Origin: Pseudomonadota bacterium
GTDB lineage: Bacteria > Pseudomonadota > Alphaproteobacteria > Puniceispirillales > Marisalimonadaceae
Reading direction: 5' to 3'
Assembly: GCA_027625145.1 (NCBI GenBank)
Contig: JAQBXK010000006.1
Span: 24,260-88,259, forward strand
DNA: 64,000 nt
Position numbers and translations under genes: made by a program. Each line of letters starts with the position of its first letter. Position 1 is the first letter of the stretch. The notes beneath the pieces were generated by a model, which saw only the letters and a list, made by a program, of their open reading frames with translations, had not been told where the DNA came from and searched no databases. Of the stretch, positions 1-52,997 are shown in pieces.

Positions 1-1775
1 ATATTTTTCGTGGACATGACAATGTTCAAGGTGCAACAGATATGTGTATTTTATCTCACTCATTGCCAGGTTATTATGGATTAGCAGCAGGTTCGTGGAA
101 ACATTGGGCCCGTGTATGGGAAGAAGATTATGATTGGTTAAAGGCAAGATTTGCATCTATAAAAGGAAAAGATGGAAAGACAAAAAGCCTTATGAATGTT
201 AAAGGAATACCTGTTTCAAGATGGATTGATGGTGTTTTAGAAGATAAAGCAAACATCGAGCAACCTGATAATCTAAGAGCTATGGTATTCTGGGGACATG
301 CACCAAACTCTCAAACAAGAATGAAAGAGATGAAAGTCGCTATGGAGAAGTTAGACCTAATGGTTGTAATTGATCCATATCCAACTGTTTCAGCGGTTTT
401 ATCTGATAAGACAGATGGGGTGTATTTGTTGCCTTCAACTACTCAGTTTGAGACATATGGTTCAGTAACAGCTTCAAACAGATCTCTTCAATGGAGAGAA
501 AAAGTAATTGATCCTTCATTTGATTCACTTCCTGACCAAACTATCATGTACAAGTTTGCAAAAAAGTTTGGTTTTGCAGATCGTATGTTTAGAAAAATAA
601 AGATAAATGAAGTAACATACGCAAATAAAGGTACAAAAAGAGAAGGGGTAAAAACTCATGAGGAACCTTTAATTGAAGACATTACAAGAGAGTTTAATGG
701 TGGAATGTGGACTATTGGTTATACTGGTCAGTCACCAGAGAGACTTAAAGCTCATATGAAAAACCAACATGTTTTTGATAGAACTACTCTTAAAGCAGTA
801 GGTGGAGAGCTTGATGGTGAGTATTATGGTCTTCCTTGGCCTTGTTGGGGAACTGCTGATATGAAACATCCAGGTACTCCTCTATTATATGACACATCAA
901 AGCCAGTAGCTGAAGGTGGACTTTGTTTTAGAGCTAGATTTGGAGTGGAACATGAAGGTAACAATTTGTTAGCTGAAGGTTCATATCCAGTAGGATCTGA
1001 AATCAAAGATGGTTATCCTCAATTTACAATGGCAATGCTTAAAAAACTTGGATGGGACAAAGATCTAACAGCCAAGGAAAAAGAAGCTATTGATAAAGTA
1101 GGTGGAGATAAAGCAAACTGGAAGGTAGATTTATCAGGTGGAATTCAAAGGGTTGCAATTAAGCACGGTTGTGCGCCTTTTGGAAATGCTAAAGCAAGGG
1201 TTAAAGTTTGGACATTCCCAGACCCAATTCCATTGCATAGAGAGCCATTATACACTTCTCGTAGAGATCTAGTAGCAGACTATCCAACTTATTCGGATAG
1301 AATGGCATATAGACTTCCTACAATGTATAAGTCTATTCAAGATGTTGATCATACCGCAAAATATCCTCTTATTTTAACTTCTGGAAGATTAGTTGAATAT
1401 GAGGGTGGTGGAGATGAGACTAGATCAAATCCATGGCTTGCTGAATTGCAACAAGATATGTTTGTAGAAATAAGCACATTTGATGCAAATTCAAAAGGTA
1501 TAAGAAATGGAGCAATGGTATGGGTTGCAACACCTGAGGGAGCTCGGATTAAAGTGATGGCGCAAGTTACTGAAAGAGTTGCAAAAGGAGTAGCATTCTT
1601 ACCTTTCCATTTTGGAGGTCATATGGAAGGAAAAGATCTGCGATCTAAGTATCCAGTGGGTTCAGATCCATATGTATTAGGGGAATCAGCAAATACAGCT
1701 TTTACATACGGATATGACGTTGTAACACAGATGCAAGAGACTAAGTGCTCATTGTGTCAAATTGAACTAGCTTAA
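1..1775 (+). CDS. fdhA: Formate dehydrogenase catalytic (alpha) subunit, molybdopterin/tungstopterin oxidoreductase; partial, 5' end outside window
   Basis: The frame is open from nt 3 (IFRGHDNVQGATD...), so the start lies upstream of the window. FdnG-like C-terminal motifs are present (MVVIDPYPT, ILTSGRLVEYEGGG, FLPFHFGG, YDVVTQMQETK). fdhB, fdhC and fdhD follow. Confidence 0.9.
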   Translation, partial: IFRGHDNVQGATDMCILSHSLPGYYGLAAGSWKHWARVWEEDYDWLKARFASIKGKDGKTKSLMNVKGIPVSRWIDGVLEDKANIEQPDNLRAMVFWGHAPNSQTRMKEMKVAMEKLDLMVVIDPYPTVSAVLSDKTDGVYLLPSTTQFETYGSVTASNRSLQWREKVIDPSFDSLPDQTIMYKFAKKFGFADRMFRKIKINEVTYANKGTKREGVKTHEEPLIEDITREFNGGMWTIGYTGQSPERLKAHMKNQHVFDRTTLKAVGGELDGEYYGLPWPCWGTADMKHPGTPLLYDTSKPVAEGGLCFRARFGVEHEGNNLLAEGSYPVGSEIKDGYPQFTMAMLKKLGWDKDLTAKEKEAIDKVGGDKANWKVDLSGGIQRVAIKHGCAPFGNAKARVKVWTFPDPIPLHREPLYTSRRDLVADYPTYSDRMAYRLPTMYKSIQDVDHTAKYPLILTSGRLVEYEGGGDETRSNPWLAELQQDMFVEISTFDANSKGIRNGAMVWVATPEGARIKVMAQVTERVAKGVAFLPFHFGGHMEGKDLRSKYPVGSDPYVLGESANTAFTYGYDVVTQMQETKCSLCQIELA

Positions 1776-1787
1776 GGGAGGCGTAAA

Positions 1788-2378
1788 ATGGCACGAATGA
1801 AATTCTTATGCGACGCAGAAAGATGTATCGAGTGTAACGCTTGTGTAACGGCATGTAAAAACGAGCATGAAGTTCCATGGGGAATTAACAGAAGAAGAGT
1901 TGTAACTATTCAGGATGGTAAACCTGGTGAAAGGTCAATCTCAGTGGCGTGTATGCATTGTTCAGATGCACCATGTATGGCTGTATGTCCAGTAGACTGT
2001 TTTTACCAAACTGAGCAAGGTGTAGTTCTTCACTCTAAAGATCTATGTATAGGTTGTGGATATTGCTTTTATGCATGTCCATTTGGAGCGCCTCAGTATC
2101 CACAAGCAGGAAACTATGGTTCAAGAGGAAAGATGGATAAATGTACTTTTTGTGCAGGTGGTCCAGAAACAGATATGTCTGACTCTGAATTCCAAAAATA
2201 TGGCCGTAACAGATTAGCAGAAGGTAAGTTACCAGTATGTGCAGAAATGTGTTCTACAAAAGCACTTTTAGCAGGTGATGGTGATGAAGTTGCTAACATT
2301 TTCAGAGAAAGAGTTGTCGCACGCGGATTTGGCTCTGGAGCTTGGGGATGGGGAACAGCATACCAATTAAAAAGCTAA
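1788..2378 (+). CDS. fdhB: Formate dehydrogenase iron-sulfur (beta) subunit, 4x[4Fe-4S] ferredoxin type, no membrane anchor
   Basis: Four Cys clusters are present (CIECNACVTAC, CMHCSDAPCMAVCP, CIGCGYCFYACP, CTFC...CAEMC). The protein is 196 aa with no C-terminal TM helix, as in Wolinella-type FdhB. A GGGAGG Shine-Dalgarno (SD) sequence sits just upstream. Confidence 0.9.
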   Translation: MARMKFLCDAERCIECNACVTACKNEHEVPWGINRRRVVTIQDGKPGERSISVACMHCSDAPCMAVCPVDCFYQTEQGVVLHSKDLCIGCGYCFYACPFGAPQYPQAGNYGSRGKMDKCTFCAGGPETDMSDSEFQKYGRNRLAEGKLPVCAEMCSTKALLAGDGDEVANIFRERVVARGFGSGAWGWGTAYQLKS

Positions 2379-2387
2379 ATTAGTTTT

Positions 2388-2422
2388 AAAAAAGGCGGGA
2401 CATAGAATTCCCGCCTTTTTTT
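2388..2422 (+). terminator. Rho-independent terminator-like hairpin between fdhB and the downstream lipoprotein/fdhC genes
   Basis: AAAAAAGGCGGGA-cataga at-TCCCGCCTTTTTTT. The GC-rich 7-bp core stem (2394-2400 / 2409-2415) is flanked by an A-run and a 7-T run. It is conspicuous in an AT-rich background. Confidence 0.8.
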
Positions 2423-2459
2423 ATATTCTATATATACTTAGATTAAAATTGGGGTGAAA

Positions 2460-2660
2460 ATGATAATAAGATTTTATAAAAATCTATTAATAGTGTTGTT
2501 TATAATGAGCACATTTTTAATAAGCTCATGTAGAGAAGATGAGCAAAACAGAGTATTGAATTATAATAAAGGTGTATATCTTGGAGAAAAAGATACCCAA
2601 CTTACAGAGCAACAAATAACAAAATTAAGAATACATACATCTAGACAAAAAAGTAATTAA
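2460..2660 (+). CDS. Small predicted lipoprotein (66 aa from the ATG; the track starts at GTG 2454), unknown function
   Basis: The signal peptide ends in the lipobox-like ISSC (Cys codon 2529-2531). A GGGGTG SD-like sequence lies 5 nt before ATG 2460. The mature part, about 43 aa, is hydrophilic. The gene sits between fdhB and fdhC. Confidence 0.55.
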   Translation: MIIRFYKNLLIVLFIMSTFLISSCREDEQNRVLNYNKGVYLGEKDTQLTEQQITKLRIHTSRQKSN

Positions 2661-2690: not shown

Positions 2691-3728
2691 ATGTTAAAAA
2701 AAATAACAGCTGTAATAATGATGGTATTTATTTTAAATACAATAATTATATCAAATTCAAATACCTCTTTAGCACAGTCTAAAGGAGAAGTTCCTGGTAA
2801 ATCATTAGGAATAAAATCCGATACGGATTTATGGAGATACGTTCGTAATGGTAATGCTGGTACAACACAAATGAAAGATGAGCTTTCAGCAGTGATGATT
2901 CAATCAGAAGGTGATAATTGGAGAGCACTAAGAAATGGTCCAGTCTCAATGTTTGGAGGAATAGGATTAGCAGTAATAATTGCATTACTATTTGCATTTT
3001 ATTTATATAGAGGAAAAATTAAAGTTGAATCAGGATTATCTGGTGACACTATACTACGATTTGCAACATTAGATAGGTTTGCACACTGGTTAATGGCAGG
3101 TTCATTTGTTTTATTAGCTCTTACAGGTTTGAATATACTGTACGGCAGGTACATTTTGATACCTATTTTAGGGCCTGAATTATTTAGTTCAATAACAGTT
3201 GGAGGAAAATATATACATAATTATTTATCCTTTGCGTTTATGACTGGTTTAGCTTTAGCCTTTATACTATGGGTTAAACATAATATTCCTACAAAAATAG
3301 ACTGGCAATGGTTAAAAATGGGTGGTGGAATATTTAAAGCAGGAATGCATCCTCCAGCTAAAAAATTTAATGCAGGTCAAAAGATGATTTTTTGGATCAC
3401 AATGATAGGAGGCTTATCAGTTAGTATGTCAGGCATTGCTCTTATGTTCCCATTTGAGACAAGTATGTTTTCGGAAACTTTTGCATTGCTAAATATATTT
3501 GGTTTAGACCTTCCAACAAATTTAACTGCAATGCAAGAACAACAGTATAATCAATTATGGCATGGAGTTGTTTCATTAGGGTTAATGATAATGATAATTG
3601 CTCATATTTACATTGGTTCTGTAGGAATGGAAGGTGCACTTGATGCAATGAACAGTGGAAAAGTAGATAGAAACTGGGCAAAAGAACACCATAATTTATG
3701 GGTAAAAGAAGAAGACGAAAAATCATAA
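2691..3728 (+). CDS. fdhC: Formate dehydrogenase gamma subunit (membrane di-heme cytochrome b) with N-terminal periplasmic domain
   Basis: It has a signal-like N-terminus and a conserved periplasmic segment (LWRYVRNG...MIQSEGDNWRALRNGP). Multiple TM helices with His residues follow (RFAHWLMAG, IHNY, VKHN, IAHIYIG). This matches the FDH-gamma architecture. Confidence 0.8.
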   Translation: MLKKITAVIMMVFILNTIIISNSNTSLAQSKGEVPGKSLGIKSDTDLWRYVRNGNAGTTQMKDELSAVMIQSEGDNWRALRNGPVSMFGGIGLAVIIALLFAFYLYRGKIKVESGLSGDTILRFATLDRFAHWLMAGSFVLLALTGLNILYGRYILIPILGPELFSSITVGGKYIHNYLSFAFMTGLALAFILWVKHNIPTKIDWQWLKMGGGIFKAGMHPPAKKFNAGQKMIFWITMIGGLSVSMSGIALMFPFETSMFSETFALLNIFGLDLPTNLTAMQEQQYNQLWHGVVSLGLMIMIIAHIYIGSVGMEGALDAMNSGKVDRNWAKEHHNLWVKEEDEKS

Positions 3729-3743
3729 TAACTTATAAATTGC

Positions 3744-5123
3744 ATGGTAAGAATCTATAAAAGTAAAATAATAATGATTTTTGGATTTGATTTTAAAAAA
3801 AGCATTAGGAATGTAATTATATTCCTAATGCCTTTATTTTTAATAAATACTAATGCAAGTGCAATAGAAAAATTAATTGCACATGGTGGTCCAGTAAAGG
3901 GATTGGCGGTTTCAAAAAATAAGGAATATATGGCGAGTGCAAGTTTTGATTATTCAGTGGTATTATGGGGATTAAACCCAATAGAAGAAAAAATGACATT
4001 AATTGGCCATGATGCAGCAGTTAATACAGTAAAATTCTCTCCTAGCAATAACACTTTAGCCTCGGGTGGTGACGATAATAAAATATTGCTTTGGCAACTT
4101 AAGTATCCAATAAAAAAAAATATTTCAATAGAACCTATCATCCTTGGTAAGCATAGAGGAAAAGTTGTTGACTTAGATTTTTCTAAAGATGGTAAATATT
4201 TACTCACAGCAAGTTGGGATGGAAGTATTGGTCTATGGGATATAATAAAAAGAAAAAATATTAAATTTATTAAAGGACATAAAGGGCCAGTATATTCGGT
4301 AAAATACTCCGAAGATAATAGTCAAATATATAGTTCAGGATACGACGGAGAAATAAGATTATGGAATGCTAAAAATGGAAACTTTATCCGACCTCTAGTA
4401 AAAAATGGTTGGGGCATATCAGTATTTGAAGTTAATGAAGAAAAAAATTTTATAGCTTACGGATCAACTGATGGTATTATCAAAGTTGTAAAACTTAATG
4501 AAGATAAAGAAATTCTTAAAATAGGGAATAATAGAACTCCTGTTTTATCTATGTATTATTTAAAAGAAAAAAATTTAATAAGTTTTGGAAATGCAAAAGG
4601 AAGAATGATAATACTTGATACTAATAGTTGGTCATTAGTAAGAGATTTTAATGCAGTAAATGGACCTATCTGGGATAGCATTTTATTTCCAGAAGATACA
4701 TCATTAATAGTAGCGGGATTAGATGACTTTTTAACTAGATGGGAAATATTTGATTTCCCACCTGAAATATTAGATAAACCAGGACCTGCAAGACGATTTA
4801 ACCCAGTAGAAGAAGTTAGCAATGGAGAAAAACAATTTGCTAGAAAATGTAGTGTTTGTCATACTTTAAACTCAGATGGGAAAAAAAGAGCAGGACCTAC
4901 ATTATATAAAGTATTTGGAAGGAAAGCAGGCACATTAAAAGGTTATAAATATTCAGAAGCATTATTAAAATCTAAAATTATTTGGAGTGAAAAAACAATA
5001 AATCAATTATTTCATGAAGGACCGAATAAAGTAACGCCAGGAACTAAGATGCCTATTCAAAAAATGAAAAGGTATGACGACAGAAAAGATCTTATTACGT
5101 TTTTAAAAGAAGCTACAAAGTAA
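3744..5123 (+). CDS. Secreted fusion protein: seven-blade WD40 beta-propeller plus C-terminal class I (mitochondrial/c2-like) cytochrome c domain
   Basis: The signal peptide has an NASA/IE cleavage-like site. Seven WD-like repeats end in LWGL, LWQL, LWDI, LWNA, VVKL, ILDT and RWEI. The C-terminus reads GEKQFARKCSVCHT...GPTLYKVFGRKAG...PGTKMP, with heme motif CSVCH at 4848-4862. The gene starts 15 nt after the fdhC stop. Confidence 0.8.
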   Translation: MVRIYKSKIIMIFGFDFKKSIRNVIIFLMPLFLINTNASAIEKLIAHGGPVKGLAVSKNKEYMASASFDYSVVLWGLNPIEEKMTLIGHDAAVNTVKFSPSNNTLASGGDDNKILLWQLKYPIKKNISIEPIILGKHRGKVVDLDFSKDGKYLLTASWDGSIGLWDIIKRKNIKFIKGHKGPVYSVKYSEDNSQIYSSGYDGEIRLWNAKNGNFIRPLVKNGWGISVFEVNEEKNFIAYGSTDGIIKVVKLNEDKEILKIGNNRTPVLSMYYLKEKNLISFGNAKGRMIILDTNSWSLVRDFNAVNGPIWDSILFPEDTSLIVAGLDDFLTRWEIFDFPPEILDKPGPARRFNPVEEVSNGEKQFARKCSVCHTLNSDGKKRAGPTLYKVFGRKAGTLKGYKYSEALLKSKIIWSEKTINQLFHEGPNKVTPGTKMPIQKMKRYDDRKDLITFLKEATK

Positions 5124-5147: not shown

Positions 5148-5276
5148 ATGAAAATGGTATTAATAAGCGGATTATTTGGAATAATAGTGGGTGTTGGAGC
5201 TTACTACATATTAATGAGTTTAGGAATGGATACAGCAAGTGTTATGTCTAGTGTAAACGTAAGGCTAACAGACTAA
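5148..5276 (+). CDS. Unannotated 42-aa single-TM peptide (MKMVLISGLFGIIVGVGAYYILMSLGMDTASVMSSVNVRLTD)
   Basis: It is below the ORF-track size cutoff and I read it directly from the sequence. A strong SD, AAGGGAG (5135-5141), lies 6 nt before the ATG. The N-terminal half is hydrophobic and glycine-rich. It fills most of the 184-nt gap in an otherwise compact operon. Confidence 0.5.
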   Translation: MKMVLISGLFGIIVGVGAYYILMSLGMDTASVMSSVNVRLTD

Positions 5277-5307: not shown

Positions 5308-6024
5308 ATGAAAATAAAAGAAAAATATATAATAAAAATTTTAATATTAGTTTTCTCATTGTTATCATTTAATTTGGAAGCAAGTGATTCTTCTAATGTG
5401 TGGAATAATGCTTATAAATCAGTTGTTGTAGTTATGCCTACTTGGTCTGGTTATAGCAAGCCAGGTTTTGGTGCACCAAATGGTGTGGCACCTGCAGGTA
5501 CTGGGTTTTATATATCATTAAAAAATAATAAAAAAGTTAGTAATTATATAATTACAGCTGCTCATGTAATTAAAGAATCTAAAAATATAAAAATAAAAAA
5601 TTATCAAAATAAAATAGAGAAAGCAGAATTAATTATTGCTGATAAAAAGCGAGATATTGCAATATTGAAATCTAAAGTAAATGGTCAGGCAATTAAAATA
5701 TCATCCAAAAAAAATGAAATTGGAAATCATGTCTGTGTAATAGGCAATAGTTTTGGTTTAGGACCAAGCTTGTCTTGTGGTGTTATTTCAGCACAAAATA
5801 GACAAAATATAGGTTTTAATGAAATAGAAAATTTTATTCAAACAGATGCAGCTGTAAATCCTGGAGACTCAGGAGGCCCTCTATTAGATAATAATGGAGA
5901 ATTAATAGGTATGTTAGATGCTATCTTTACAAAAGAAGCTGATATTGACGCGGGAGTTAATTTTGCTATACACAATGATTTAATAAATGAATTTATTAAG
6001 CTAAATTTGCATTTGATAAAGTAG
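5308..6024 (+). CDS. Secreted trypsin-like (S1C/DegP-type protease domain) serine protease without PDZ domain
   Basis: It has a signal peptide. The catalytic triad context is TAAHV (His), RDIAIL (Asp) and NPGDSGGPL (Ser). The stop lies 7 nt before moeA. Confidence 0.8.
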   Translation: MKIKEKYIIKILILVFSLLSFNLEASDSSNVWNNAYKSVVVVMPTWSGYSKPGFGAPNGVAPAGTGFYISLKNNKKVSNYIITAAHVIKESKNIKIKNYQNKIEKAELIIADKKRDIAILKSKVNGQAIKISSKKNEIGNHVCVIGNSFGLGPSLSCGVISAQNRQNIGFNEIENFIQTDAAVNPGDSGGPLLDNNGELIGMLDAIFTKEADIDAGVNFAIHNDLINEFIKLNLHLIK

Positions 6025-6031
6025 AGTTGTA

Positions 6032-7261
6032 ATGGAGATAAAACCTACAAAATTAGAAACAGCAAAACAGGATCTATTAAAAAGTATAAATAGTATAGTT
6101 GATAGTGAAGAAATTTTAATAGAACATGCATTAGAACGAGTCGTTAAGACTGAAATTGTTAGTAATATTAATTTGCCTCAAACAGCAAACTCAGCAGTGG
6201 ATGGTTACGGAGTTTTAGCTGAAACATTACATAACAATCATAAAACTGAATTTGATATTGCTGGAATAGCAAAAGCAGGACATCCGTTAAATAAAATTAT
6301 AAAAAAAAATCAAACTGTAGAAATTTATACTGGAGCAGTAATGCCAAAAGGTATAGATGCAATTGCTATGCATGAAAAATGTAAAAGGTTTGGAAATAAA
6401 GTAATAATAAATGAAAATTTATTAAAATATCAAAATATGAGACCTGTAGGAGAAAACCTTAAAAAAGGCGAAGTAGTTGTAAAAAAAGGAAAATTAATAA
6501 ATCCTGCAGATATTGGCCAATTAGCTGCTTCAGGCAATAAGGCTGTGAAGGTTTATAAAAAAATAAATTTGTCAGTAATCTCAACAGGAGATGAATTAGT
6601 TGATACTTCTACTAATCAAATAAATGAAGGTCATATATTTGATTCTAATCGACCAATGCTGCTATCGTTATTCAACAAAAAATATATAAAATTATTTGAT
6701 ATGGGAATAGTTAAAGATAATAGAAAAGATTTAGCTAAAAAGTATGAAAAATGTTTGTCACAAAGTGATGTGGTGATTTCATCAGGAGGAGCTTCAGATG
6801 GTATAGAGGATCATACCCAAAGCGCATTAAAAGACATAGGAGCTAAATGTTTGGTTTGGCAGTTAGCAATGAAGCCAGGCAAACCAATGGCAGTAGGTAT
6901 AATTGAAGGTAAATTAATTTTTTGTTTACCCGGTAATCCGGTAGCTGCATTTGTTTGTGCAAAACTAATAATTAAACCTTTAATAAATAAATTAGCAGGC
7001 TGTGAAGATTTAGAAACATTTACGATAAAATTACCTTCAGGATTTGATCATAATAAAAGAATAGGAAGAGCTGAATATTTAAGGGCAAAAATTATAAATA
7101 ATGATAATGGATCATTTATAACTATACATGGTAGGAAGGGTGCTGGTGTTATTTCATCTTTAACAGGTGCAGATGGCTTAGTTGAAATTCCTCTAGAATG
7201 TGAAATTGTTAGAAAAGGAGATTTACTTAAATTTATTCCTTTTAATCACATAGGTTTATAA
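6032..7261 (+). CDS. moeA: Molybdopterin molybdenum/tungsten transferase MoeA
   Basis: It is 409 aa with MoeA-like motifs (SAVDGYG, ISTGDEL, SGGASDG, KPGKP, LPGNPVAA). Confidence 0.9.
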   Translation: MEIKPTKLETAKQDLLKSINSIVDSEEILIEHALERVVKTEIVSNINLPQTANSAVDGYGVLAETLHNNHKTEFDIAGIAKAGHPLNKIIKKNQTVEIYTGAVMPKGIDAIAMHEKCKRFGNKVIINENLLKYQNMRPVGENLKKGEVVVKKGKLINPADIGQLAASGNKAVKVYKKINLSVISTGDELVDTSTNQINEGHIFDSNRPMLLSLFNKKYIKLFDMGIVKDNRKDLAKKYEKCLSQSDVVISSGGASDGIEDHTQSALKDIGAKCLVWQLAMKPGKPMAVGIIEGKLIFCLPGNPVAAFVCAKLIIKPLINKLAGCEDLETFTIKLPSGFDHNKRIGRAEYLRAKIINNDNGSFITIHGRKGAGVISSLTGADGLVEIPLECEIVRKGDLLKFIPFNHIGL

Positions 7262-7266
7262 TTTAA

Positions 7267-7920
7267 TTAATTAGGTATTAAATTATTATCCCATTTAACA
7301 ATTACATTGAATGAAATTGAAATTCTAGGAAATTCAGACATGTTTGGATGAACTAAATGATGTATGAAGGCTGGCCATAATAATAAATCACCAGATTTAG
7401 GTAAAACTCTATGTTCTGGGTCGACTTGCTTATCACCTTTAATTGAATTCATATTAGCTTGTCCACGTGGGTCAAAAAAACTTATTGAAGCAGGATTTAA
7501 GTCAGATCTAAAAATTTCTGCATCAGATTGATCTGGGACATTCACATAATATGTACCAGACAACCATGAGTGAGGATGGTTGTGCAAATTATGATAATCA
7601 CCTTTCATATTAACATTTCCCCATCCTTGAATAGACCATCTTAATTCATAGGAAATTCCAGATTTTTGAGCATAATCAAATATTGCTTTATCAATACATT
7701 GTTTTAACCAAAACATCACAGGATGGTCCATATTAAGTATATTTTGAGCAATGTAATTTTCAGTCATGTTATCTTGAGAAATGTTATTTGACAAAACTAT
7801 TCCTGAAATAACAGGGTTAGCCGTTTCAAAGCCAGGTAAACTCATTTCTAAAAATTGAGTAGGCCAAAGATCTAAAAATTTTGGTTTGATAGAATTATTA
7901 TTTTTCACTCGTCTAACCAT
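7267..7920 (-). CDS. Putative 2OG-Fe(II) oxygenase-like protein (PF13759 / TIGR02466-like), function unknown
   Basis: Motifs HNHPHSWLSGTYYV and LLLWPAFIHHLVHPN...RISISFN resemble that family. It is the last gene of a co-oriented modE-like / fdhD / mobAB string. Confidence 0.6.
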   Translation of the reverse strand: MVRRVKNNNSIKPKFLDLWPTQFLEMSLPGFETANPVISGIVLSNNISQDNMTENYIAQNILNMDHPVMFWLKQCIDKAIFDYAQKSGISYELRWSIQGWGNVNMKGDYHNLHNHPHSWLSGTYYVNVPDQSDAEIFRSDLNPASISFFDPRGQANMNSIKGDKQVDPEHRVLPKSGDLLLWPAFIHHLVHPNMSEFPRISISFNVIVKWDNNLIPN

Positions 7921-7946: not shown

Positions 7947-9080
7947 TTAAGTAATATTATATCGTTGAATAATAAAATCAGAAATTGAATTTATATTATT
8001 TAAATCAAAAGTAGGAATTGAAGATTCAATATTTATATCTGATGCTATGGCAAAAATATTATTATCCTCTTTATATAGCTCAGGTTTACCAATAATTGGC
8101 CTATAAACTTCAAATTTTGGTATAGGTTCATTTTTATAACCTTCTACTATAATTAGATCACATTTTTGGATAGGATCTTTTGAAAACATTTCTATCATTT
8201 GAAATAAACTTTTTTCATCATGTTCATCATTTTCTTGTATCATAGCAAATCGTTCTTTAGATGAGATTATCATTGGTCTAGCGCCAGCTTTTCTTAAATT
8301 AAAAGAATCTTTCCCAGGTTTATCAAGTTCAAATTTATGATGTGCATGTTTTAATGTGCCTATTGTTATTCCTATCTTTGTAAAGTTTTCAATTAGTTTA
8401 GTACATAAAGTAGTTTTCCCAGACCCTGACCAACCAGCTAATCCAAAAAACGGAGGTAGTTTACCAATAATCTGTTGAGCTTTAATGAGGTCTAATGGAG
8501 AGTTTAAATTAGTAAAAGGATCAAAATTTTCATTATTGATTTTATCAAAATCAACATAAGCTACTTTAAGATTAGAAGTAAAAATATCAATTTTTCTTAT
8601 ACCTTCATTTAATGCCTTTTCTAGTTTGAGGTTAAGATCAGATTTCCATAATGCTATGACTGGATGATTATAACCTTTCGATTGAGCAACAACTAAATCA
8701 ACATCTAATTCTTTGTTTTTTAATTTAATCATTTCTTTTACAATATTTTTAGGAAGAAACGGGGTATCACAGGGTAAGGTCATAACCCATTTTTGGTTTA
8801 ATTGACTAGCCCAATTTAAAGATGCTAATATTCCTGCCAATGGACCTAAGTGGCCTTTGATAGGATCTTCAATTATTTCATAACCGAATTCAGAAAACTT
8901 ATCTAAATTAGTATTAATATTTAATGCTATAGGTGCAACATGACCTGAAATACTTTCTAAAACGTAAGATAAAAGAGGACGATCTAGAAGAGGTATTAAA
9001 GCTTTATCTTTGCCACCCATTCTTCTACCTTTTCCTCCTGCTAAAATCACACATGGAACGATTTCATTTAAATTTTCCAA
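7947..9080 (-). CDS. mobA: Fused MobA (molybdenum cofactor guanylyltransferase) - MobB (GTP-binding adaptor) protein
   Basis: The N-terminal half carries VILAGGKGRRMGG.DKAL (MobA). The C-terminal half carries the P-loop GLAGWSGSGKTTL (MobB). One uninterrupted 377-aa ORF. Confidence 0.85.
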   Translation of the reverse strand: MENLNEIVPCVILAGGKGRRMGGKDKALIPLLDRPLLSYVLESISGHVAPIALNINTNLDKFSEFGYEIIEDPIKGHLGPLAGILASLNWASQLNQKWVMTLPCDTPFLPKNIVKEMIKLKNKELDVDLVVAQSKGYNHPVIALWKSDLNLKLEKALNEGIRKIDIFTSNLKVAYVDFDKINNENFDPFTNLNSPLDLIKAQQIIGKLPPFFGLAGWSGSGKTTLCTKLIENFTKIGITIGTLKHAHHKFELDKPGKDSFNLRKAGARPMIISSKERFAMIQENDEHDEKSLFQMIEMFSKDPIQKCDLIIVEGYKNEPIPKFEVYRPIIGKPELYKEDNNIFAIASDINIESSIPTFDLNNINSISDFIIQRYNIT

Positions 9081-9094
9081 ATTTTTTATTATCC

Positions 9095-9973
9095 CTAATT
9101 AATTATAGCTCTCTGTGCAGACATAATGTCATCATTTTTTATAGTTTTGGTATCTGTATCAAAAATAACTCTCTCAATGCCATTTGCTATAATCATTCTC
9201 TTCCCTTTAGCTCTGCCAATTAAGGTAAGGCCTGCATCTTTGGCAAGTTTTACTCCAGATTCTGTGAATCCAGATCTTGAAATGAGAATGGGTATTCCCA
9301 TTTGAGCAGTTTTAATAACCATTTCAGAGGTTAATCTTCCTGTAGTATAAAAAATTTTATCTTTTGATTCTTCTTTATTTAAAAACATCCATCCAGCAAT
9401 TTTATCCATTGCATTATGTCTACCTACATCTTCAACATATATTAAGGGAATATCATTTTTACATAATACACATCCATGAAGAGCTCCAGCTTTTAGATAA
9501 AGGCTTGGTCTAGTATTGACTTTCTTAGATATAGTATAGATCCATGAGGTTCTAATTTTAGCTTTTTTATTTAAGTTAATAGATGAAAAATCATCCATTA
9601 TATCTCCATAAACCGTACCAACAGCACATCCACTCGTACGTATTTTCTTTTCCATTTTCTTTTCATAATTAGTTTGTCTTTCAGTTCTTATAATTACGAC
9701 TTGTAAATCTTTATCATAATTAATCTCTGATATAACGTCGTCCTTTTTAAGCATGTTTTGATTTAACAAATAACCTACGGCCAAAAGATCAGGCATGTCG
9801 CCAAGTGTCATTGCAGTTACAATTTCTTGTTTATTAAGATAAATGGTTAAGGGTACTTCTTTTACAACAGGCAATTGAATGTGTTCACCTATTTCATTGA
9901 TGCAATCAATTGTTTCTGTGAGTTTGTCATTTTCTAAATCAGGTGAAATAAAAAATTCTTTTTTATCGTTCAT
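9095..9973 (-). CDS. fdhD: Formate dehydrogenase accessory sulfurtransferase FdhD
   Basis: It has the conserved DVGRHNAMDK motif, GRLTSEMV and ISRSG. It is 292 aa. Confidence 0.88.
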   Translation of the reverse strand: MNDKKEFFISPDLENDKLTETIDCINEIGEHIQLPVVKEVPLTIYLNKQEIVTAMTLGDMPDLLAVGYLLNQNMLKKDDVISEINYDKDLQVVIIRTERQTNYEKKMEKKIRTSGCAVGTVYGDIMDDFSSINLNKKAKIRTSWIYTISKKVNTRPSLYLKAGALHGCVLCKNDIPLIYVEDVGRHNAMDKIAGWMFLNKEESKDKIFYTTGRLTSEMVIKTAQMGIPILISRSGFTESGVKLAKDAGLTLIGRAKGKRMIIANGIERVIFDTDTKTIKNDDIMSAQRAIIN

Positions 9974-23579: not shown

Positions 23580-24287
23580 ATGAATATTTTACTAGAAGCT
23601 TTTCAACAATCATTTGATTTAGTATTTAACTTTGATAAAGATTTATTTGAAATATTATTTCTTTCGCTAAGAGTAAGCTTAGTTTCTCTATTGTTATCTT
23701 GTTTAATAGGATTGCCTTTGGGAACTATATTAGCCATTAAAAATTTTTGGTTTAGAGATAGTATCTTAATTATATTTAATACTATGATGGGGTTGCCCCC
23801 AGTTGTTGTTGGGCTAATTGTATATATTATTATATCTAGATCTGGACCATTAGGTTGGATGGGTATTTTATATACCCCTACAGCAATGATAATAGCTCAA
23901 ATGATATTAATAATTCCGATTATAGTATCTTTATCTGCTCAAATTATTGAAGAAATTCAATTAGAGTATAAAAATCTTTTTAAATCTTTGGTAATTTCTT
24001 CTCAAGATGCAGTCAAAGCATATCTTTTTGATGCCAGGTATTCTATTTTAACAGTTATGCTAGCAGGGTTTGGAAGAGCTATTTCTGAGGTTGGAGCAGT
24101 TATTATTGTAGGCGGGAATATTGATCATTTAACCAGAGTTATGACCACTTCAATAGCTTTAGAAACGTCAAAGGGTAATTTGTCTCTTGCATTGGCCCTA
24201 GGGATAATATTGTTATTAATAGCATTAACAGTTAACTTTCTTTTAATCCGTTTAAAAATAACAGCTAAACGGAGATCATATGTGTAA
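23580..24287 (+). CDS. tupB: Tungstate ABC transporter permease TupB
   Basis: It closely matches the remembered TupB pattern (LSLRVS, NTMMGLPPVVVGL, SRSGPLG, TPTAMIIAQ). Confidence 0.85.
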   Translation: MNILLEAFQQSFDLVFNFDKDLFEILFLSLRVSLVSLLLSCLIGLPLGTILAIKNFWFRDSILIIFNTMMGLPPVVVGLIVYIIISRSGPLGWMGILYTPTAMIIAQMILIIPIIVSLSAQIIEEIQLEYKNLFKSLVISSQDAVKAYLFDARYSILTVMLAGFGRAISEVGAVIIVGGNIDHLTRVMTTSIALETSKGNLSLALALGIILLLIALTVNFLLIRLKITAKRRSYV

Positions 24288-47125: not shown

Positions 47126-48673
47126 ATTATCAAAAAGACAGGTAGAGAAATAATATCAGAACTTCAATCTAGGAGAGAAAAAGCTCGTCTAGGTGGAGGT
47201 TTAGATAGAATAGAAAAACAACATAAATCTGGTAAGCTTACAGCTAGAGAAAGAATACTCACCTTATTAGACGAAGGATCTTTTGAAGAAACTGATATGT
47301 TTGTTGTTCATCGCATTAGAGACTTTGGAATGGATGGTAAAACTATTCCAGGAGATGGTGTTATTACGGGATCAGGAAAAATTAATGGCAGGCTTATTTA
47401 TGTTTATGCACAAGACTTCACTGTATTTGGGGGGTCTTTATCAGCCCCTCATGCAGCAAAGATAGTTAAAATAATGACTTTGGCTATTCAAAACAGAGCT
47501 CCAATTATAGGCCTTAATGATAGTGGGGGAGCAAGAATACAGGAAGGGGTGGAATCATTAGGTGGTTATGCAGATGTATTTCTTCAAAACGCTTTAGCAT
47601 CAGGTGTTGTTCCTCAAATTTCTATGATTATGGGCCCTTGCGCGGGTGGCGCTGTTTATTCTCCGGCAATGACAGATTTTACTTTTATGGTTAAAGGAAC
47701 TAGTTATATGTTTGTAACTGGGCCTGATGTTGTTAAAACCGTCACCTCTGAAGAAGTGACAGCCGAAGAACTTGGTGGAGCTGAAACTCATACTACTATA
47801 TCATCAGTTGCAGATGGTTCTTTTAATAATGATATTGAAGCTTTAATAGAGTTAAGAAGATTTTTAACTTTTCTTCCTTCTAGTAATGAAAATATAGCTC
47901 CAATAAGAAAAAATGAGGATCCCAAAACAAGAATTGCTCCTGCTTTAGATACTCTAATTCCAGAGAACCCAAATTTACCATACGACATGAAAGAATTAAT
48001 TTTAACAGTTGCTGATCAAAATGAATTTTTTGAACTTCAAGAAAACTATGCCAAAAATATATTAATTGGTTTTATTAGATTAGATGGACAAAGTATTGGT
48101 GTTGTAGCTAACCAACCTATGATTCTTGCAGGTTGTTTAGATATAGATTCAAGTCGAAAAGCTGCAAGATTTGTAAGATTTTGTGATGCATTTGATATTC
48201 CTATTTTAACTTTAGTGGACGTGCCGGGTTTTATGCCAGGAACAGCTCAAGAGTACGGTGGCATAATCAAGCATGGAGCAAAACTTTTATTTGCTTATGC
48301 TGAAGCAACAACTCCTAAAGTAACTTTAATTACTAGAAAAGCATATGGTGGTGCTTATGATGTTATGAGTTCAAAGCATTTAAGAGGAGACGCAAATTAT
48401 GCTTGGCCTACAGCTGAAATAGCCGTAATGGGAGCAAAAGGGGCAGTTGAAATTTTATATAGAAATGAGCTGAACGACCCAGAAAAAATTCAAAAAAGAA
48501 CGACTGATTATGAAGAAAGATTTGCTAATCCTTTTATTGCTGCAGAGAGAGGGTTCTTGGATGATGTAATTATACCAAATAATTCTAGATATAGGTTGAT
48601 TCAAGCATTTTCAAAGTTAAAAAATAAAATTCAAATTAATCCTAAAAAGAAGTTTGGTAATATTCCCCTTTAA
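47126..48673 (+). CDS. pccB: Propionyl-CoA carboxylase beta (carboxyltransferase) subunit; start inferred at ATT 47126 or ATC 47129, not ATG 47297
   Basis: The track ORF begins at ATG 47297. The same frame is open from 47108 and encodes the conserved N-terminus [46 protein letters not shown]. An AGAGGA SD lies at 47116-47121. Confidence 0.85.
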
Positions 48674-48694
48674 TATTCAAAGAAGAAGTTAAAA

Positions 48695-50767
48695 ATGTTT
48701 AAAAAAATACTTATAGCTAATCGTGGTGAAATTGCGTGTAGAATTATAAATACAGCAAAAAAAATGAATATTCAAACTGTAGCAGTTTATTCAGACGCGG
48801 ATAGATTTGCAGAACATGTTAGATTAGCAGACGAATCAGTTTATCTTGGTCCATCTTTGGCAAAAGAGAGTTATTTAAAAAAAGATTTAATTATTAAGGC
48901 TTGTAAAGATACAGGATGTGAAGCAGTGCATCCGGGGTATGGTTTTTTGTCAGAAAATGCAGATTTTGCTGATGAATTAGATAAATCAGGTATCGTTTTT
49001 ATTGGTCCTTCGAAAACAGCTATTGCTTCTATGGGTGATAAAATAGAATCAAAAAAAATAGCTAAATCAGCTGAAGTTAATACTATTCCAGGATACATCG
49101 GCGTTATAGAAGACAAAGAAAAAGCTATAAAAATAGCCGATCAAATAGGTTACCCTGTTATGATAAAAGCAAGCGCCGGCGGTGGTGGAAAAGGAATGAG
49201 AGTAGCTTTTTCAAAAAATGAAGTTGCAGATGGCTTTGAAAGAGCAACAAGTGAAGCAATAAATAGTTTTGGTGACAAACGTGTTTTTATTGAAAAATTT
49301 ATTATAAATCCTAGGCATATTGAAATACAAGTTTTAGCAGATACTTTTGGTAACATAGTTTATTTAGGTGAAAGAGAGTGCTCAATCCAGAGAAGAAATC
49401 AAAAAGTTGTTGAAGAGGCTCCTTCACCTTTTCTAGATAAAAAAACTAGAGAATCTATGGGTGAACAAGCCATAAAGTTATCTAAAAGTGTCAGTTACTC
49501 TAGTGCTGGTACAGTTGAGTTTATTGTAGATAAAGATAAGAATTTTTTCTTCTTAGAAATGAACACGCGTCTTCAAGTAGAACATCCTGTTACTGAATTA
49601 GTTACTGGAATAGATTTAGTAGAACAAATGATTAGAATTGCATTTGGTGAAAAATTAAACTTTACACAAAAAGACGTTGTTTTAATTGGTTCGGCAATTG
49701 AAAGTCGGATATACGCAGAAAATCCATATAAAGGTTTTCTTCCTTCTATTGGAAGGCTAACTAAATATAGCCCACCTGAAGAAAGAAAACATGACGATAA
49801 TTCTATCACTAGGAATGATACTGGTGTTAGAGAAGGTGATGAGGTTTCTATGTTTTATGACCCAATGCTTGCAAAATTATGCACTTGGGGAGAAACAAGA
49901 GAAATAGCAATTAACAGAATGGAGTCATCCTTAGATCAATTTTCTATAGAAGGCATTGATCATAACATACCTTTTTTATCAGCAATTATAGGTAGCCAAA
50001 GGTTCAAATTAGGTAATTTAACAACAGCGTTTATTGATGAAGAATACCCAGAGGGTTTTAAAGGTCAATCTCCTAATGAAAATGAAGAATGGGTTTTGTC
50101 AGCTTTATTTCTAGTTTTTCATCTAAGTCAAATATCTAAAGATTTTCATGCTGAAGAAGGATTTTCTTCTGAGTGGGAAGTGCAAATGCAAGATAAATCT
50201 AAAGCAAATCTGTTAAACACTTTCTCTTATCAAATTAAAAGATCTTCAAATAAAAATAATGAATTTTATATTAAACCAAAGCCTTTAAAAAAAATAAATG
50301 GAATAATAGAAGATTATATAAAAGTTACAGTTGAAACAAATTATTTAACAAAAATTATTACATCTAACATTAATCTCTTTAAAGATGGGATCATAAAGTT
50401 TCCAAGTAAAATTGATTATAAAATAAAGTATATAAATCCATCAATTGAACTTAATTATAGAGGAATGACACTAAATGCTTTTGTTATTCCAAAACATGTC
50501 TCATCTTTATCTAAATATATGAAACCTATTAAATTAATAGACAAGTCAAATTTACTTATTTGCCCGATGCCCGGAAAACTAATTAAAATTATGGTTAATG
50601 AACAAGATAGTGTTGAAGAAGGTCAATCTTTATGTGTTGTTGAGGCAATGAAAATGGAAAACACATTAGTTGCGCAAAAACAAGGACAAATTAAAGCAAT
50701 TAAATTTAATGAGGGTGACACATTGTCAGTTGATCAAGTAATAATGGAATTTGAGTTTAATAAATAA
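48695..50767 (+). CDS. pccA: Propionyl-CoA carboxylase alpha (biotin carboxylase + BCCP) subunit
   Basis: It starts ILIANRGEIACRI and has an ATP-grasp domain. The biotinylation motif is EAMKMEN. Confidence 0.92.
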   Translation: MFKKILIANRGEIACRIINTAKKMNIQTVAVYSDADRFAEHVRLADESVYLGPSLAKESYLKKDLIIKACKDTGCEAVHPGYGFLSENADFADELDKSGIVFIGPSKTAIASMGDKIESKKIAKSAEVNTIPGYIGVIEDKEKAIKIADQIGYPVMIKASAGGGGKGMRVAFSKNEVADGFERATSEAINSFGDKRVFIEKFIINPRHIEIQVLADTFGNIVYLGERECSIQRRNQKVVEEAPSPFLDKKTRESMGEQAIKLSKSVSYSSAGTVEFIVDKDKNFFFLEMNTRLQVEHPVTELVTGIDLVEQMIRIAFGEKLNFTQKDVVLIGSAIESRIYAENPYKGFLPSIGRLTKYSPPEERKHDDNSITRNDTGVREGDEVSMFYDPMLAKLCTWGETREIAINRMESSLDQFSIEGIDHNIPFLSAIIGSQRFKLGNLTTAFIDEEYPEGFKGQSPNENEEWVLSALFLVFHLSQISKDFHAEEGFSSEWEVQMQDKSKANLLNTFSYQIKRSSNKNNEFYIKPKPLKKINGIIEDYIKVTVETNYLTKIITSNINLFKDGIIKFPSKIDYKIKYINPSIELNYRGMTLNAFVIPKHVSSLSKYMKPIKLIDKSNLLICPMPGKLIKIMVNEQDSVEEGQSLCVVEAMKMENTLVAQKQGQIKAIKFNEGDTLSVDQVIMEFEFNK

Positions 50768-50790
50768 TTATTTAAATTTAAGAGATTATA

Positions 50791-52971
50791 ATGGTTGAAA
50801 AAAAATCTAATTTAGAAAATTGGAAAATAAACGCTTTAAAAGAATTAAAGAAAAAAAATCTTGATGGCTTAATTATTGAGACCCCTGAAGGTATTAGTAT
50901 TAAACCTTTGTATACAGCTTTAGATATTGAAAATATAAACCATTTAGATAGCCTTCCAGGTGAAGAACCTTTTTTAAGAGGACCAAAGGCAACGATGTAC
51001 ACTGGAAGACCATGGACCATAAGGCAATATGCTGGGTTTTCAACTGCATTAGAATCAAATCAATTCTATAAAAAAAACCTAGCATCTGGACAAAAGGGCC
51101 TTTCTGTTGCTTTTGATTTAGCAACACATAGGGGATATGATTCTGATCATGAAAGAGTAAGGGGTGATGTTGGAAAAGCAGGGGTAGCTATTGATAGTGT
51201 AGAAGACATGAAAATTCTTTTTGATGGTATTCCTCTTGATCAAATGTCCGTTTCAATGACTATGAATGGAGCGGTTCTCCCTGTTTTGGCAGGCTATATC
51301 GTTGCAGGAGAAGAACAGGGAGTAAGTATTGAAAAGTTAAGTGGAACTATTCAAAATGATATTTTAAAGGAATTTATGGTTAGGAATACATACATTTATC
51401 CACCAGAACCATCAATGAGAATTGTATCAGATATCATCGGTTTTACTTCTAAAAAAATGCCTAAATTTAATTCTATATCAATATCTGGCTACCATATGCA
51501 AGAGGCGGGTGCTTCCTTGGTTCAAGAATTAGCCTTTACTATAGCAGATGGACTTGAGTATATTAGAGCGGCTTCTAAAAGAGGGTTATTGGTTGATGAT
51601 TTTGCGCCAAGATTATCATTTTTCTTTGCTATAGGAATGAATTTTTTTATGGAAGCTGCTAAATTAAGAGCAGCAAGATACTTATGGTCAATTTGGACAA
51701 AAAAACTATTTAATTGTCAAAATATAAAATCTCAAATGCTTCGAACTCATTGTCAGACTTCAGGAGCAAGCCTTCAAGAACAAGATCCATATAATAATAT
51801 AATAAGAACTACAGTTGAAGCTCTTGCTGCTACTTTAGGAGGGGCTCAATCTCTTCACACAAATTCATTTGACGAAGCGATAGGCTTACCAACACCTTTT
51901 TCTGCAAAAATTGCAAGAAACACTCAATTAATTTTACAAAATGAAACAGGTATTACAGACACTATAGATCCTTTGGCGGGGAGTTATTATGTTGAAAGCA
52001 TAACAAAGGAAATGATAGAAAAAGCAAATGAATTGATTGAGAAAATTGAAGAAATGGGAGGTATGACTGTTGCTGTAATAAAAGGTTATCCCAAAGCTGA
52101 AATTGAAAAATCTGCAACCAAACGTCAAGCAAGAGTTGACTCAGGTGAGCAAATTATCGTTGGCGTTAATAAATTCCAATCTGAATCCCAGGATAAAATT
52201 GAAGTTTTAGATATTGATAATAATGCTGTAAGGGAAGAGCAGATAAATAAATTAACAAATATTAAAAACACAAGAAACAATAAATTAGTCCAACAAGCCT
52301 TAGATAATATTAAAGACGCTGCAAAAAACAACTCTGGTAATTTACTTGATTTGAGCATTATTGCCATGAGAGAGCGAGCCACTGTTGGAGAATTATCTTA
52401 TGCGCTAGAACAAGTTTATGGACGATATGGGGTTAAACAAGAAATAGTTAAAAATATTTATAAAGAAACATATTTGAAAAAAGAAGATTTTATTAAAGTT
52501 GAAGATGCATTATCAAAATTTAAGGATATAGCTGGAGTCAATCCAAAAATTTTTATGGCTAAAATTGGGCAAGATGGTCATGATAGAGGTGCAAAGGTAA
52601 TAGCATCAGCTTTTATTGACTTTGGTTTTGATGTTGAAATAGGAACTTTATTCCAAACACCATCAGAAGCTGTTGATATGGCAATAAGTTATGGAGTTCA
52701 TATTATAGGAATTTCATCTCTGGCGGCAGGTCACAAAACATTAATACCTGAGTTGATAAATGAATTAAAAAAAAGAGGTGCGGATGATATTCTTGTAGTT
52801 TGTGGAGGAGTAATACCAGCACAAGATTATAATTTTTTATATGATGCAGGTGTTGCAGCTATTTTTGGTCCAGGCACGGCTATCCCAGAAGCAGCATCTA
52901 CAACTATTAATAAAGCTTCTGAACAATTAATGAGAATGCATAACTATAGAAAATCAAGAACAAATAATTAA
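50791..52971 (+). CDS. mcm: Methylmalonyl-CoA mutase, single large polypeptide with C-terminal cobalamin-binding domain
   Basis: It is 726 aa. Motifs are [21 protein letters not shown] and [12 protein letters not shown]. The B12-binding DxHxxG motif (DGHDRG) is at 52573-52590. Confidence 0.93.
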
Positions 52972-52997
52972 AATTAATTTTCTTATGGGGTAGATAA

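Follow-up and report, generated by a model that had tools for sequence, protein, structure and literature searches.

WD40 propeller-cytochrome c fusion proteins associated with FDH3-type formate dehydrogenase genes

The fusion gene and its predicted product

The element under study is a gene for a fusion protein, composed of a WD40 beta-propeller and a C-terminal cytochrome c, which is located directly downstream of fdhC in a formate dehydrogenase (FDH) gene cluster of a Pseudomonadota bacterium of the alphaproteobacterial order Puniceispirillales (GenBank assembly GCA_027625145.1, contig JAQBXK010000006.1, forward-strand positions 24,260 to 88,259). This 64,000-nucleotide stretch, to which positions refer unless another locus is named, is designated the window; its G+C content is 30%. 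A genome scan assigns it to the SAR116 clade, with 98% identity to a metagenome-assembled genome (MAG) labelled alpha proteobacterium SCGC AAA536-G10 and 75% identity to the complete genome of Ca. Levibacter sp.; an origin in SAR11, considered on account of the low G+C content, was rejected in view of these matches. The family to which the fusion protein belongs is uncharacterised and widespread, and its genomic association is clear; the evidence is presented below.

The longest open reading frame (ORF) of the fusion gene in the window ORF list spans positions 3744..5123 (+) and encodes 459 amino acids, with Pfam matches and homologue lengths supporting the assignment. Since a length of 449 amino acids is shared by most homologues and by near-identical proteins as annotated by NCBI, the ATG at position 3774 is probably the true start. 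The stop of fdhC lies at position 3728, and the 15-nt spacing of the original prediction thus applies to the longest ORF, while 45 nt separate fdhC from the probable start. The predicted product has three parts, i.e., a Sec-type signal peptide, a seven-blade WD40 propeller and a C-terminal class I cytochrome c, in that order. The ORF is as given in the original prediction, and the results of Pfam, alignment and AlphaFold are in agreement with the architecture proposed there from the sequence. Architecture and length (425-480 amino acids) were encountered again in hundreds of genomes and are thus not a product of chance. That two separate genes were joined by an error of assembly or gene calling has virtually no probability, as a single ORF of 425-480 codons containing both domains is present in complete genomes, in plasmids of cultured strains and in many independent assemblies.

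The signal peptide (3774..3863, +) was recognized by inspection only, on the basis of a basic n-region, a hydrophobic helix and an AxA cleavage motif, with cleavage predicted after NASA (NASA/IEKL). The AlphaFold2 model places a helix at residues 7-23 in this region, while homologues, divergent ones included, carry a small-residue motif (SA, HG, EA or FA) just upstream of the conserved (I/F)E..xAHGGPV. From these features we infer export of the fusion protein to the periplasm, which attachment of the predicted haem would require. The part of the gene that encodes the signal peptide also contains an inverted repeat whose 13-bp arms match perfectly on either side of a 4-nt loop (GCATTAGGAATGT AATT ATATTCCTAATGC; 3802-3831, +), which starts 28 nt past the probable start codon, and which may have arisen by chance in an AT-rich genome or may form a hairpin that modulates translation.

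The propeller (3864..4748, +) is identified by a PF00400 WD40 match of 128.4 bits (cut-off 27), together with matches to many further WD40 beta-propeller families in Pfam, covering residues ~35-335. AlphaFold2 was run twice, firstly with 21 close homologues and subsequently with a 78-sequence alignment, designated A3, that reaches down to 40% identity. In the first run, residues ~40-300 were modelled with a pLDDT of ~90-97 as 28 strands, corresponding to seven four-stranded blades of which the seventh is closed by the first strand, while the haem domain was poorly modelled (pLDDT 26-57). In the second run, the cytochrome helices were also placed, with a mean pLDDT of 85 and a pTM of 0.80. The seven WD-like blades noted in the original prediction are thus recovered in a confidently modelled propeller. 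A Foldseek search against the Protein Data Bank (PDB) returned canonical seven-blade WD40 propellers, those of WDR5 and PkwA among them, with target-normalised TM scores of 0.84-0.91. Each of the top 50 alignments comprises ~293-329 columns, and all are to WD40 propeller proteins; therefore, no best-matching solved structure spans both domains. The invariant propeller residues in A3 include the usual structural GH/D/W positions, and the remaining invariant residues in this alignment form no obvious group that could serve as ligands of a metal or cofactor. The propeller is followed by an inter-domain linker (4749..4820, +) containing the motif PGPARRF, which corresponds to the region of lowest pLDDT in the model, and of which R340, R341 and F342 (449-residue numbering) are invariant among the 78 sequences of A3.

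Conservation of the haem domain

The C-terminal domain (4821..5120, +) is a class I cytochrome c of the mitochondrial/c2 type. When the C-terminal 120 residues were searched alone, they matched PF00034 Cytochrom_C with 42.1 bits (cut-off 21.3), while the NCBIfam model for cytochrome c-550 CycA also matched, below its cut-off. Solved-structure sequences of bonito, tuna and horse mitochondrial cytochrome c align with the domain end to end with a single gap (E 3.5e-25), which bears out the alignment with mitochondrial cytochrome c that had been made by eye. The haem-binding motif CSVCH corresponds to residues 369-373 (nucleotides 4848-4862), and the methionine of PGTKM to residue 436 (codon 5049-5051; both in 459-residue numbering); this methionine aligns with that of PGTKM in mitochondrial cytochrome c, at the position of the sixth ligand, some 60 residues past the histidine. 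The two cysteines of CSVCH are the only ones in the whole protein. The domain contains 23 lysine or arginine residues against nine aspartate or glutamate residues, and in this basic character resembles cytochromes that dock on bc1 complexes or oxidases.

Both CxxCH and PG[TS]KM were found in all 229 full-length homologues retrieved (425-480 amino acids), in line with the expectation of the original prediction that the haem ligands be conserved. An exhaustive representative search was swamped by giant multi-WD40 proteins; the four full-length family representatives that surfaced from it were used to widen the alignment. Among the 78 sequences of A3, no variation is seen at C359, C362, H363 and M426 (449-residue numbering), nor over much of the haem domain, and the CxxCH motif is invariant in the other two alignments (A1 and A2) as well. 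The cytochrome domain is also the most conserved part of the protein, with a mean majority-residue frequency of 0.77; the corresponding values are 0.62 (propeller) and 0.63 (linker). This pattern suggests a haem site that is working and under selection. As a separate observation, the 90%-identity protein cluster that contains the fusion protein also lists 56-residue Conus alpha-conotoxin precursors, an evident error of the protein collection.

The neighbouring formate dehydrogenase

The genes upstream of the fusion gene encode a periplasm-facing tungsten/molybdenum formate dehydrogenase that is assigned to the FDH3/FdhX-A-B-C type, which includes a Tat-signal small subunit. The window begins inside fdhA, of which the 3' part (42..1775, +) encodes the catalytic subunit with its Mo/W-bis-MGD cofactor (Pfam Molybdopterin and Molydop_binding); a full-length FdhA orthologue, encoded at locus L021, is 963 residues long and matches chain A of PDB 9VAP with 1392 bits. 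The adjacent fdhB (1788..2378, +) specifies the four-cluster Fe-S subunit of the FDH3 type, without a C-terminal membrane helix, as indicated by NCBIfam model NF038355 FDH3_beta (343 bits, cut-off 240) and by a match to chain B of 9VAP (E 3.3e-97). In a complete relative, the operon starts with genes for a TorD-like chaperone and a 62-residue Tat-signal protein (TIGR02811, 'formate dehydrogenase region TAT target'), followed by that for the 963-residue FdhA. FdhX (TIGR02811), FdhA, FDH3_beta (NF038355) and the gamma subunit (TIGR01583) are thus all encoded around the fusion gene. The structure 9VAP is that of the oxygen-tolerant Cys-W FdhAB of Shewanella oneidensis MR-1, encoded by fdhT-fdhX-fdhA-fdhB-fdhC (PMC13066108; PMC13397495).

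The third subunit gene, fdhC (2691..3728, +), encodes a dihaem cytochrome b (gamma) subunit (TIGR01583, 139 bits, cut-off 115.85), in which an additional signal or transmembrane segment at the N-terminus occurs together with a periplasmic stretch and a further helix. In an alignment with Escherichia coli FdnI (1KQF chain C, E 3e-20), four histidines of FdhC, located in FAHW, YIHNY, LWHG and IAHIY, stand opposite FdnI histidines, which we take to be the haem b ligands in 1KQF.

Genomic linkage and distribution

The association of the fusion gene with fdh genes was surveyed at 80 species-level loci from the genome scan. At 70 of these, fdhC lies immediately upstream on the same strand, i.e., at 70 of 76 informative loci (92%), a figure that over-represents close relatives because the surveyed loci are those most similar to the query. 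At one locus fdhC is convergent, four loci lack upstream sequence (three of these with the usual downstream genes), and at the remaining five no fdh gene occurs in the flanks. The linked loci cover SAR116/Puniceispirillales, Rhodobacterales (Paracoccaceae) and Gammaproteobacteria of the Litoricola group. Linkage of homologues to fdh genes, on which the original prediction depended, is thus seen across these lineages.

Six more divergent metagenomic lineages were also inspected. Five of these have the order TorD, Tat protein, FdhA, FdhB, small ORF, FdhC, WD40-cytochrome c, 40-residue ORF, protease and 2-oxoglutarate (2OG) oxygenase, while the fusion gene of the sixth stands alone. Homologues are furthermore encoded on plasmids of cultured bacteria, at 35-38% identity in Sagittula stellata E-37, Salipiger, Alloyangia, Tateyamaria and one Sulfitobacter, and at 29-30% identity in Methylobacterium bullatum, Bradyrhizobium and Sinorhizobium. 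Sagittula stellata E-37 (cytochrome gene ABFK29_RS24610, protein WP_005864010.1) exhibits the usual gene order, with the stop of the gamma-subunit gene overlapping the start of the cytochrome gene. In Sinorhizobium and Bradyrhizobium (Sinorhizobium meliloti pB, locus L093, 8956-10251; Bradyrhizobium sp. 131, locus L095, 9917-11206), the fusion gene does not follow fdhC and is instead located at the opposite end of the FDH3 supercluster, where it is convergent with a gene for a ~650-residue 4Fe-4S protein that heads the supercluster, which includes lipoate-ligase-like, DUF6505, DUF6352, DUF3305, DUF3306, TorD, Tat protein, FdhA and fdh3B genes. The Sinorhizobium homologue retains CIACH and PGTKMP. 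In the unannotated record of Methylobacterium bullatum (L094), an fdhA homologue is located ~10 kb downstream, which is consistent with the Rhizobiales layout.

Proposed role and alternative explanations

Domain content and gene linkage point to a fusion protein that would act as a docked electron acceptor, opening a branch from formate to cytochrome c; this is the most likely of the readings considered, although our confidence in it is no better than even. The propeller would dock the protein onto the assembly of formate dehydrogenase and membrane. Electrons would reach the tethered haem c from FdhB, through its distal [4Fe-4S] cluster, or from FdhC, through its periplasm-side haem b, and would then pass to a high-potential acceptor, e.g., a cytochrome c oxidase of the cbb3 or aa3 type. 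This branch would be added beside the ordinary route from FdhC to quinone. A further-reaching and more doubtful proposal is that the fusion protein represents a dedicated extra subunit, by which a quinone-reducing, oxygen-tolerant FDH becomes a formate:cytochrome c oxidoreductase; its propeller would then be seated on an assembly of FdhB, FdhC and a membrane micro-protein (described below), with its haem feeding a terminal oxidase past bc1. As such a subunit it could provide a fast electron drain that protects the FDH in oxic seawater.

Several observations weigh against the docked-acceptor reading. The route from FdhC to quinone looks intact, because the four haem b histidines are all present in FdhC, which resembles FdnI and its quinone-reducing relatives. 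Electrons that take a bc1-bypassing branch would, moreover, contribute less to energy conservation. The FDH3 enzyme also functions without the fusion protein in other bacteria, S. oneidensis being an example, whose FdhT-X-A-B-C cluster as described is devoid of the fusion gene. Among 99 plasmid records with an FDH3-type fdhB, only 17 carry the cytochrome gene, and the operons of Pseudosulfitobacter sp. DSM 107133 and Sulfitobacter indolifex DSM 14862 are colinear with that of Sagittula except for its absence, although a copy elsewhere in these genomes is possible. The bias of the linkage survey towards close relatives, mentioned above, should also be counted here, as should a gammaproteobacterial lineage (Chromatiaceae/Sedimenticolaceae-like MAGs) in which the fusion gene occurs without fdh genes in 7-10 kb of flank. 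These stand-alone loci include L078 (10001-11347, with PMT_2, DM13 and HNH neighbours) and L089 (7001-8368, with Usp, TIR and type VI secretion neighbours), as well as L073, L079, L081 and L082; no shared neighbours and no micro-protein were found in their 7-10 kb flanks. Since FDH3 operons exist without the fusion gene and FdhC keeps its haem b ligands, the fusion protein is, as judged from gene content, an optional accessory of FDH3 and not a core subunit, which would be present wherever the enzyme is.

Some of these same observations would be explained if the fusion protein were a general periplasmic carrier or scaffold, with the propeller holding a c2-like haem near some other complex (bc1, an oxidase or a peroxidase) and the gene being only co-regulated with those for formate oxidation. 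The closeness of the haem domain to soluble carriers of the mitochondrial/c2 type is in agreement with this explanation, as are the stand-alone gammaproteobacterial genes, the FDH3 operons that lack the fusion gene, and the Rhizobiales gene, which is separated from fdhABC by several kb and converges on the gene for a 4Fe-4S protein. However, co-regulation alone hardly explains why the place directly after fdhC is kept across three orders, to the point of a stop/start overlap, nor why the rearranged Rhizobiales copies still reside inside the FDH3 supercluster, and a general carrier is considered unlikely. A role in assembly, quality control or redox sensing is rather unlikely as well; in such a role, the haem would report the periplasmic redox state, while the propeller would recruit a partner, e.g., a DegP-like protease, so as to mature, protect or turn over an FDH exposed to oxygen. 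WD40 propellers are typically scaffolds, maturation genes are abundant in the cluster (those for a TorD-like chaperone, FdhD, MoeA and MobAB), and a gene for a secreted trypsin-like protease of the DegP family without PDZ domains (5308..6024, +; Pfam Trypsin_2) is located within 2.5 kb downstream of the cytochrome gene at 54 of the 62 loci with enough flank. This protease is nevertheless missing from Sagittula and from Paracoccaceae-type loci that carry the cytochrome. Moreover, electron carriers, and not sensors, typically have a Met-His ligated class I haem within a lysine-rich surface, and sequence constraint in the fusion protein is strongest in the haem domain.

In yet another explanation, which we regard as very unlikely, the propeller itself would be catalytic, oxidising a substrate and passing the electrons internally to the C-terminal haem c, as occurs in quinohaemoprotein alcohol dehydrogenases. 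The domain order is indeed that of the type II quinohaemoprotein dehydrogenases, and the linker motif PGPARRF is conserved, yet the propeller is seven-bladed and most closely matches canonical WD40 families and structures like that of WDR5, and no pyrroloquinoline quinone (PQQ) family is found among its top 25 Pfam hits. In addition, its invariant residues include the usual structural GH/D/W positions without an obvious cofactor-ligand cluster, and cysteines occur only at the haem.

Comparison with known systems

With regard to the enzyme, the closest system is FdhA1B1C1 of S. oneidensis MR-1 (9VAP), to which FdhA and FdhB are related with the scores given above. The enzyme beside the fusion gene is of the type represented by this system and by FDH3 of Methylobacterium extorquens, and its cluster also encodes FDH3_beta, a small subunit of the formate_TAT kind, a chaperone resembling TorD and a gamma subunit of the cytochrome b type. 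A WD40-cytochrome c gene, in contrast, is lacking from the S. oneidensis cluster, the fusion protein being an extra in a subset of lineages, and fdh3 of M. extorquens has been reported as fdh3ABC only.

In sulfate reducers, the electrons of periplasmic FdhAB enzymes are passed to c-type cytochromes, and the FdhAB/FdhABC3-cytochrome c3 systems of these organisms, in which a periplasmic FDH is coupled to a c-type acceptor, represent the nearest precedent at the level of the enzyme. FdhABC3 is listed in a 2026 review of metal-dependent formate dehydrogenases (PMC13397495). The acceptors in these sulfate-reducer systems are multihaem class III cytochromes of anaerobes, and a cytochrome b subunit is absent, whereas in the present case a monohaem class I cytochrome is carried on a propeller in aerobes with an intact FdhC.

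With regard to the carrier, cytochromes c_y, CycM and c552 of Alphaproteobacteria possess a mitochondrial-type class I haem domain C-terminal to a tether, by which a normally diffusible carrier is confined to one site. A tethered class I haem is a likeness in function, while the fusion protein differs from c_y/CycM in its cleavable-type signal peptide and its folded 295-residue WD40 propeller; the uncleaved N-terminal transmembrane anchor and flexible linker of c_y/CycM are absent, and the protein is therefore not placed in that group. Type II quinohaemoprotein alcohol dehydrogenases are periplasmic enzymes in which a linker joins an N-terminal eight-blade, PQQ-binding catalytic propeller to a class I cytochrome c at the C-terminus. 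The layout is the same, but the propeller described here is a seven-blade canonical WD40 domain with no sign of a cofactor site, and the blade number (seven, not eight) together with the lack of PQQ families among the top 25 Pfam hits argues against membership. Cytochrome cd1 nitrite reductase, which combines an N-terminal cytochrome c with an eight-blade haem d1 propeller, was likewise rejected, as its domain order is reversed and the fusion protein has seven blades.

A WD40 propeller and a mitochondrial-type cytochrome c are also brought together by Apaf-1, which clamps cytochrome c between a seven-blade and an eight-blade propeller, and which is among the sequence hits of the propeller. It scores no better than WDR5, G-beta or PkwA, however, and a 'Rosetta stone' link between the fusion protein and the pair of Apaf-1 and cytochrome c is most improbable.

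In databases, the fusion protein is named only 'c-type cytochrome', 'cytochrome c' or 'hypothetical protein', and neither Pfam nor NCBIfam holds a model specific for a WD40-cytochrome c fusion family. The original prediction knew of no characterised member of this architecture; the searchable literature, a 2026 review of formate dehydrogenases included, likewise contained no mention of such a protein.

Possible significance

In the surface ocean, where SAR116 bacteria and roseobacters are abundant, formate commonly occurs as a C1 intermediate. If electrons from the periplasmic FDH indeed reach the level of cytochrome c through the fusion protein, the expected energy yield of marine formate oxidation would change, as would its wiring, by the addition of a bc1-independent branch. 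This would constitute an unrecognised branch of formate respiration in abundant marine bacteria (SAR116, roseobacters and Litoricola). It would, furthermore, provide a clear case of a canonical WD40 propeller acting as the docking module of a redox carrier in the bacterial periplasm. The enzyme is close to the oxygen-tolerant Shewanella FdhAB used in CO2 electro-reduction, and a natural, dockable haem partner could be of interest to enzyme engineers. A cultured carrier (Sagittula stellata E-37) and cultured non-carriers (Pseudosulfitobacter and Sulfitobacter indolifex) have operons that are otherwise equivalent.

Other features of the gene cluster and the window

A GC-rich hairpin followed by a run of T residues, resembling an intrinsic terminator or attenuator, is located at positions 2388..2421 (+), 10 nt past the fdhB stop. 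A stem-loop with another stem sequence occupies the equivalent place after fdhB in 14 further lineages, ranging from SAR116 to Sagittula and Litoricola. The element is probably a terminator, an attenuator or an mRNA-stabilising structure that divides fdhXAB from the downstream genes, and its conserved position suggests a level of expression for fdhXAB that differs from that of the fdhC/cytochrome segment. Co-transcription of the fusion gene with fdhC, as originally predicted, remains plausible, with the qualification that this segment may be expressed differently from fdhAB.

Two small ORFs accompany the cluster. The ORF between fdhB and fdhC (2454..2660, +) encodes a 68-residue lipoprotein-like product with a signal ending in LISSC, which is kept in most fdh-linked loci as determined by tblastn, and for which no family above cut-off was found in Pfam or NCBIfam. 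The second (5148..5276, +; MKMVLISGLFGIIVGVGAYYILMSLGMDTASVMSSVNVRLTD) encodes a 42-residue micro-protein with a single membrane helix and a tail ending in NVRL(T/D). By tblastn, this micro-protein was detected in most (>70) fdh-linked loci, either before or after the cytochrome gene, and also in FDH3 operons that lack the cytochrome (Pseudosulfitobacter and Sulfitobacter). Because it is equally present in the latter operons, it is assigned to the FDH3 module, of which it looks like an undescribed small membrane component. It was also considered as a membrane anchor of the propeller, which would bind the arginine of the VRL tail in the manner of WDR5 with WIN motifs; this candidate was rejected, since it has no specific support and the micro-protein is equally present without the cytochrome.

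The cluster continues downstream of the protease gene with moeA (6032..7261, +; Pfam MoeA_N, MoCF_biosynth and MoeA_C), for molybdopterin molybdenum/tungsten insertion, and a gene for a putative 2OG-Fe(II) oxygenase (7267..7920, -; PF13759), which recurs in the cluster across many lineages. These are followed by a mobA-mobB fusion for synthesis of the MGD cofactor (7947..9080, -; Pfam NTP_transf_3 and MobB) and by fdhD for sulfur transfer in formate dehydrogenase maturation (9095..9973, -; Pfam FdhD-NarQ, 242 bits). Scans for tRNA genes and Rfam families returned no match across the 64 kb. The remainder of the window is devoted to ordinary metabolism, including, at 47297-54884 (+) and elsewhere, genes for propionyl-CoA carboxylase subunits, methylmalonyl-CoA mutase, two acyl-CoA synthetases, PEP carboxykinase, TrkH, a TRAP transporter and an MFS transporter.

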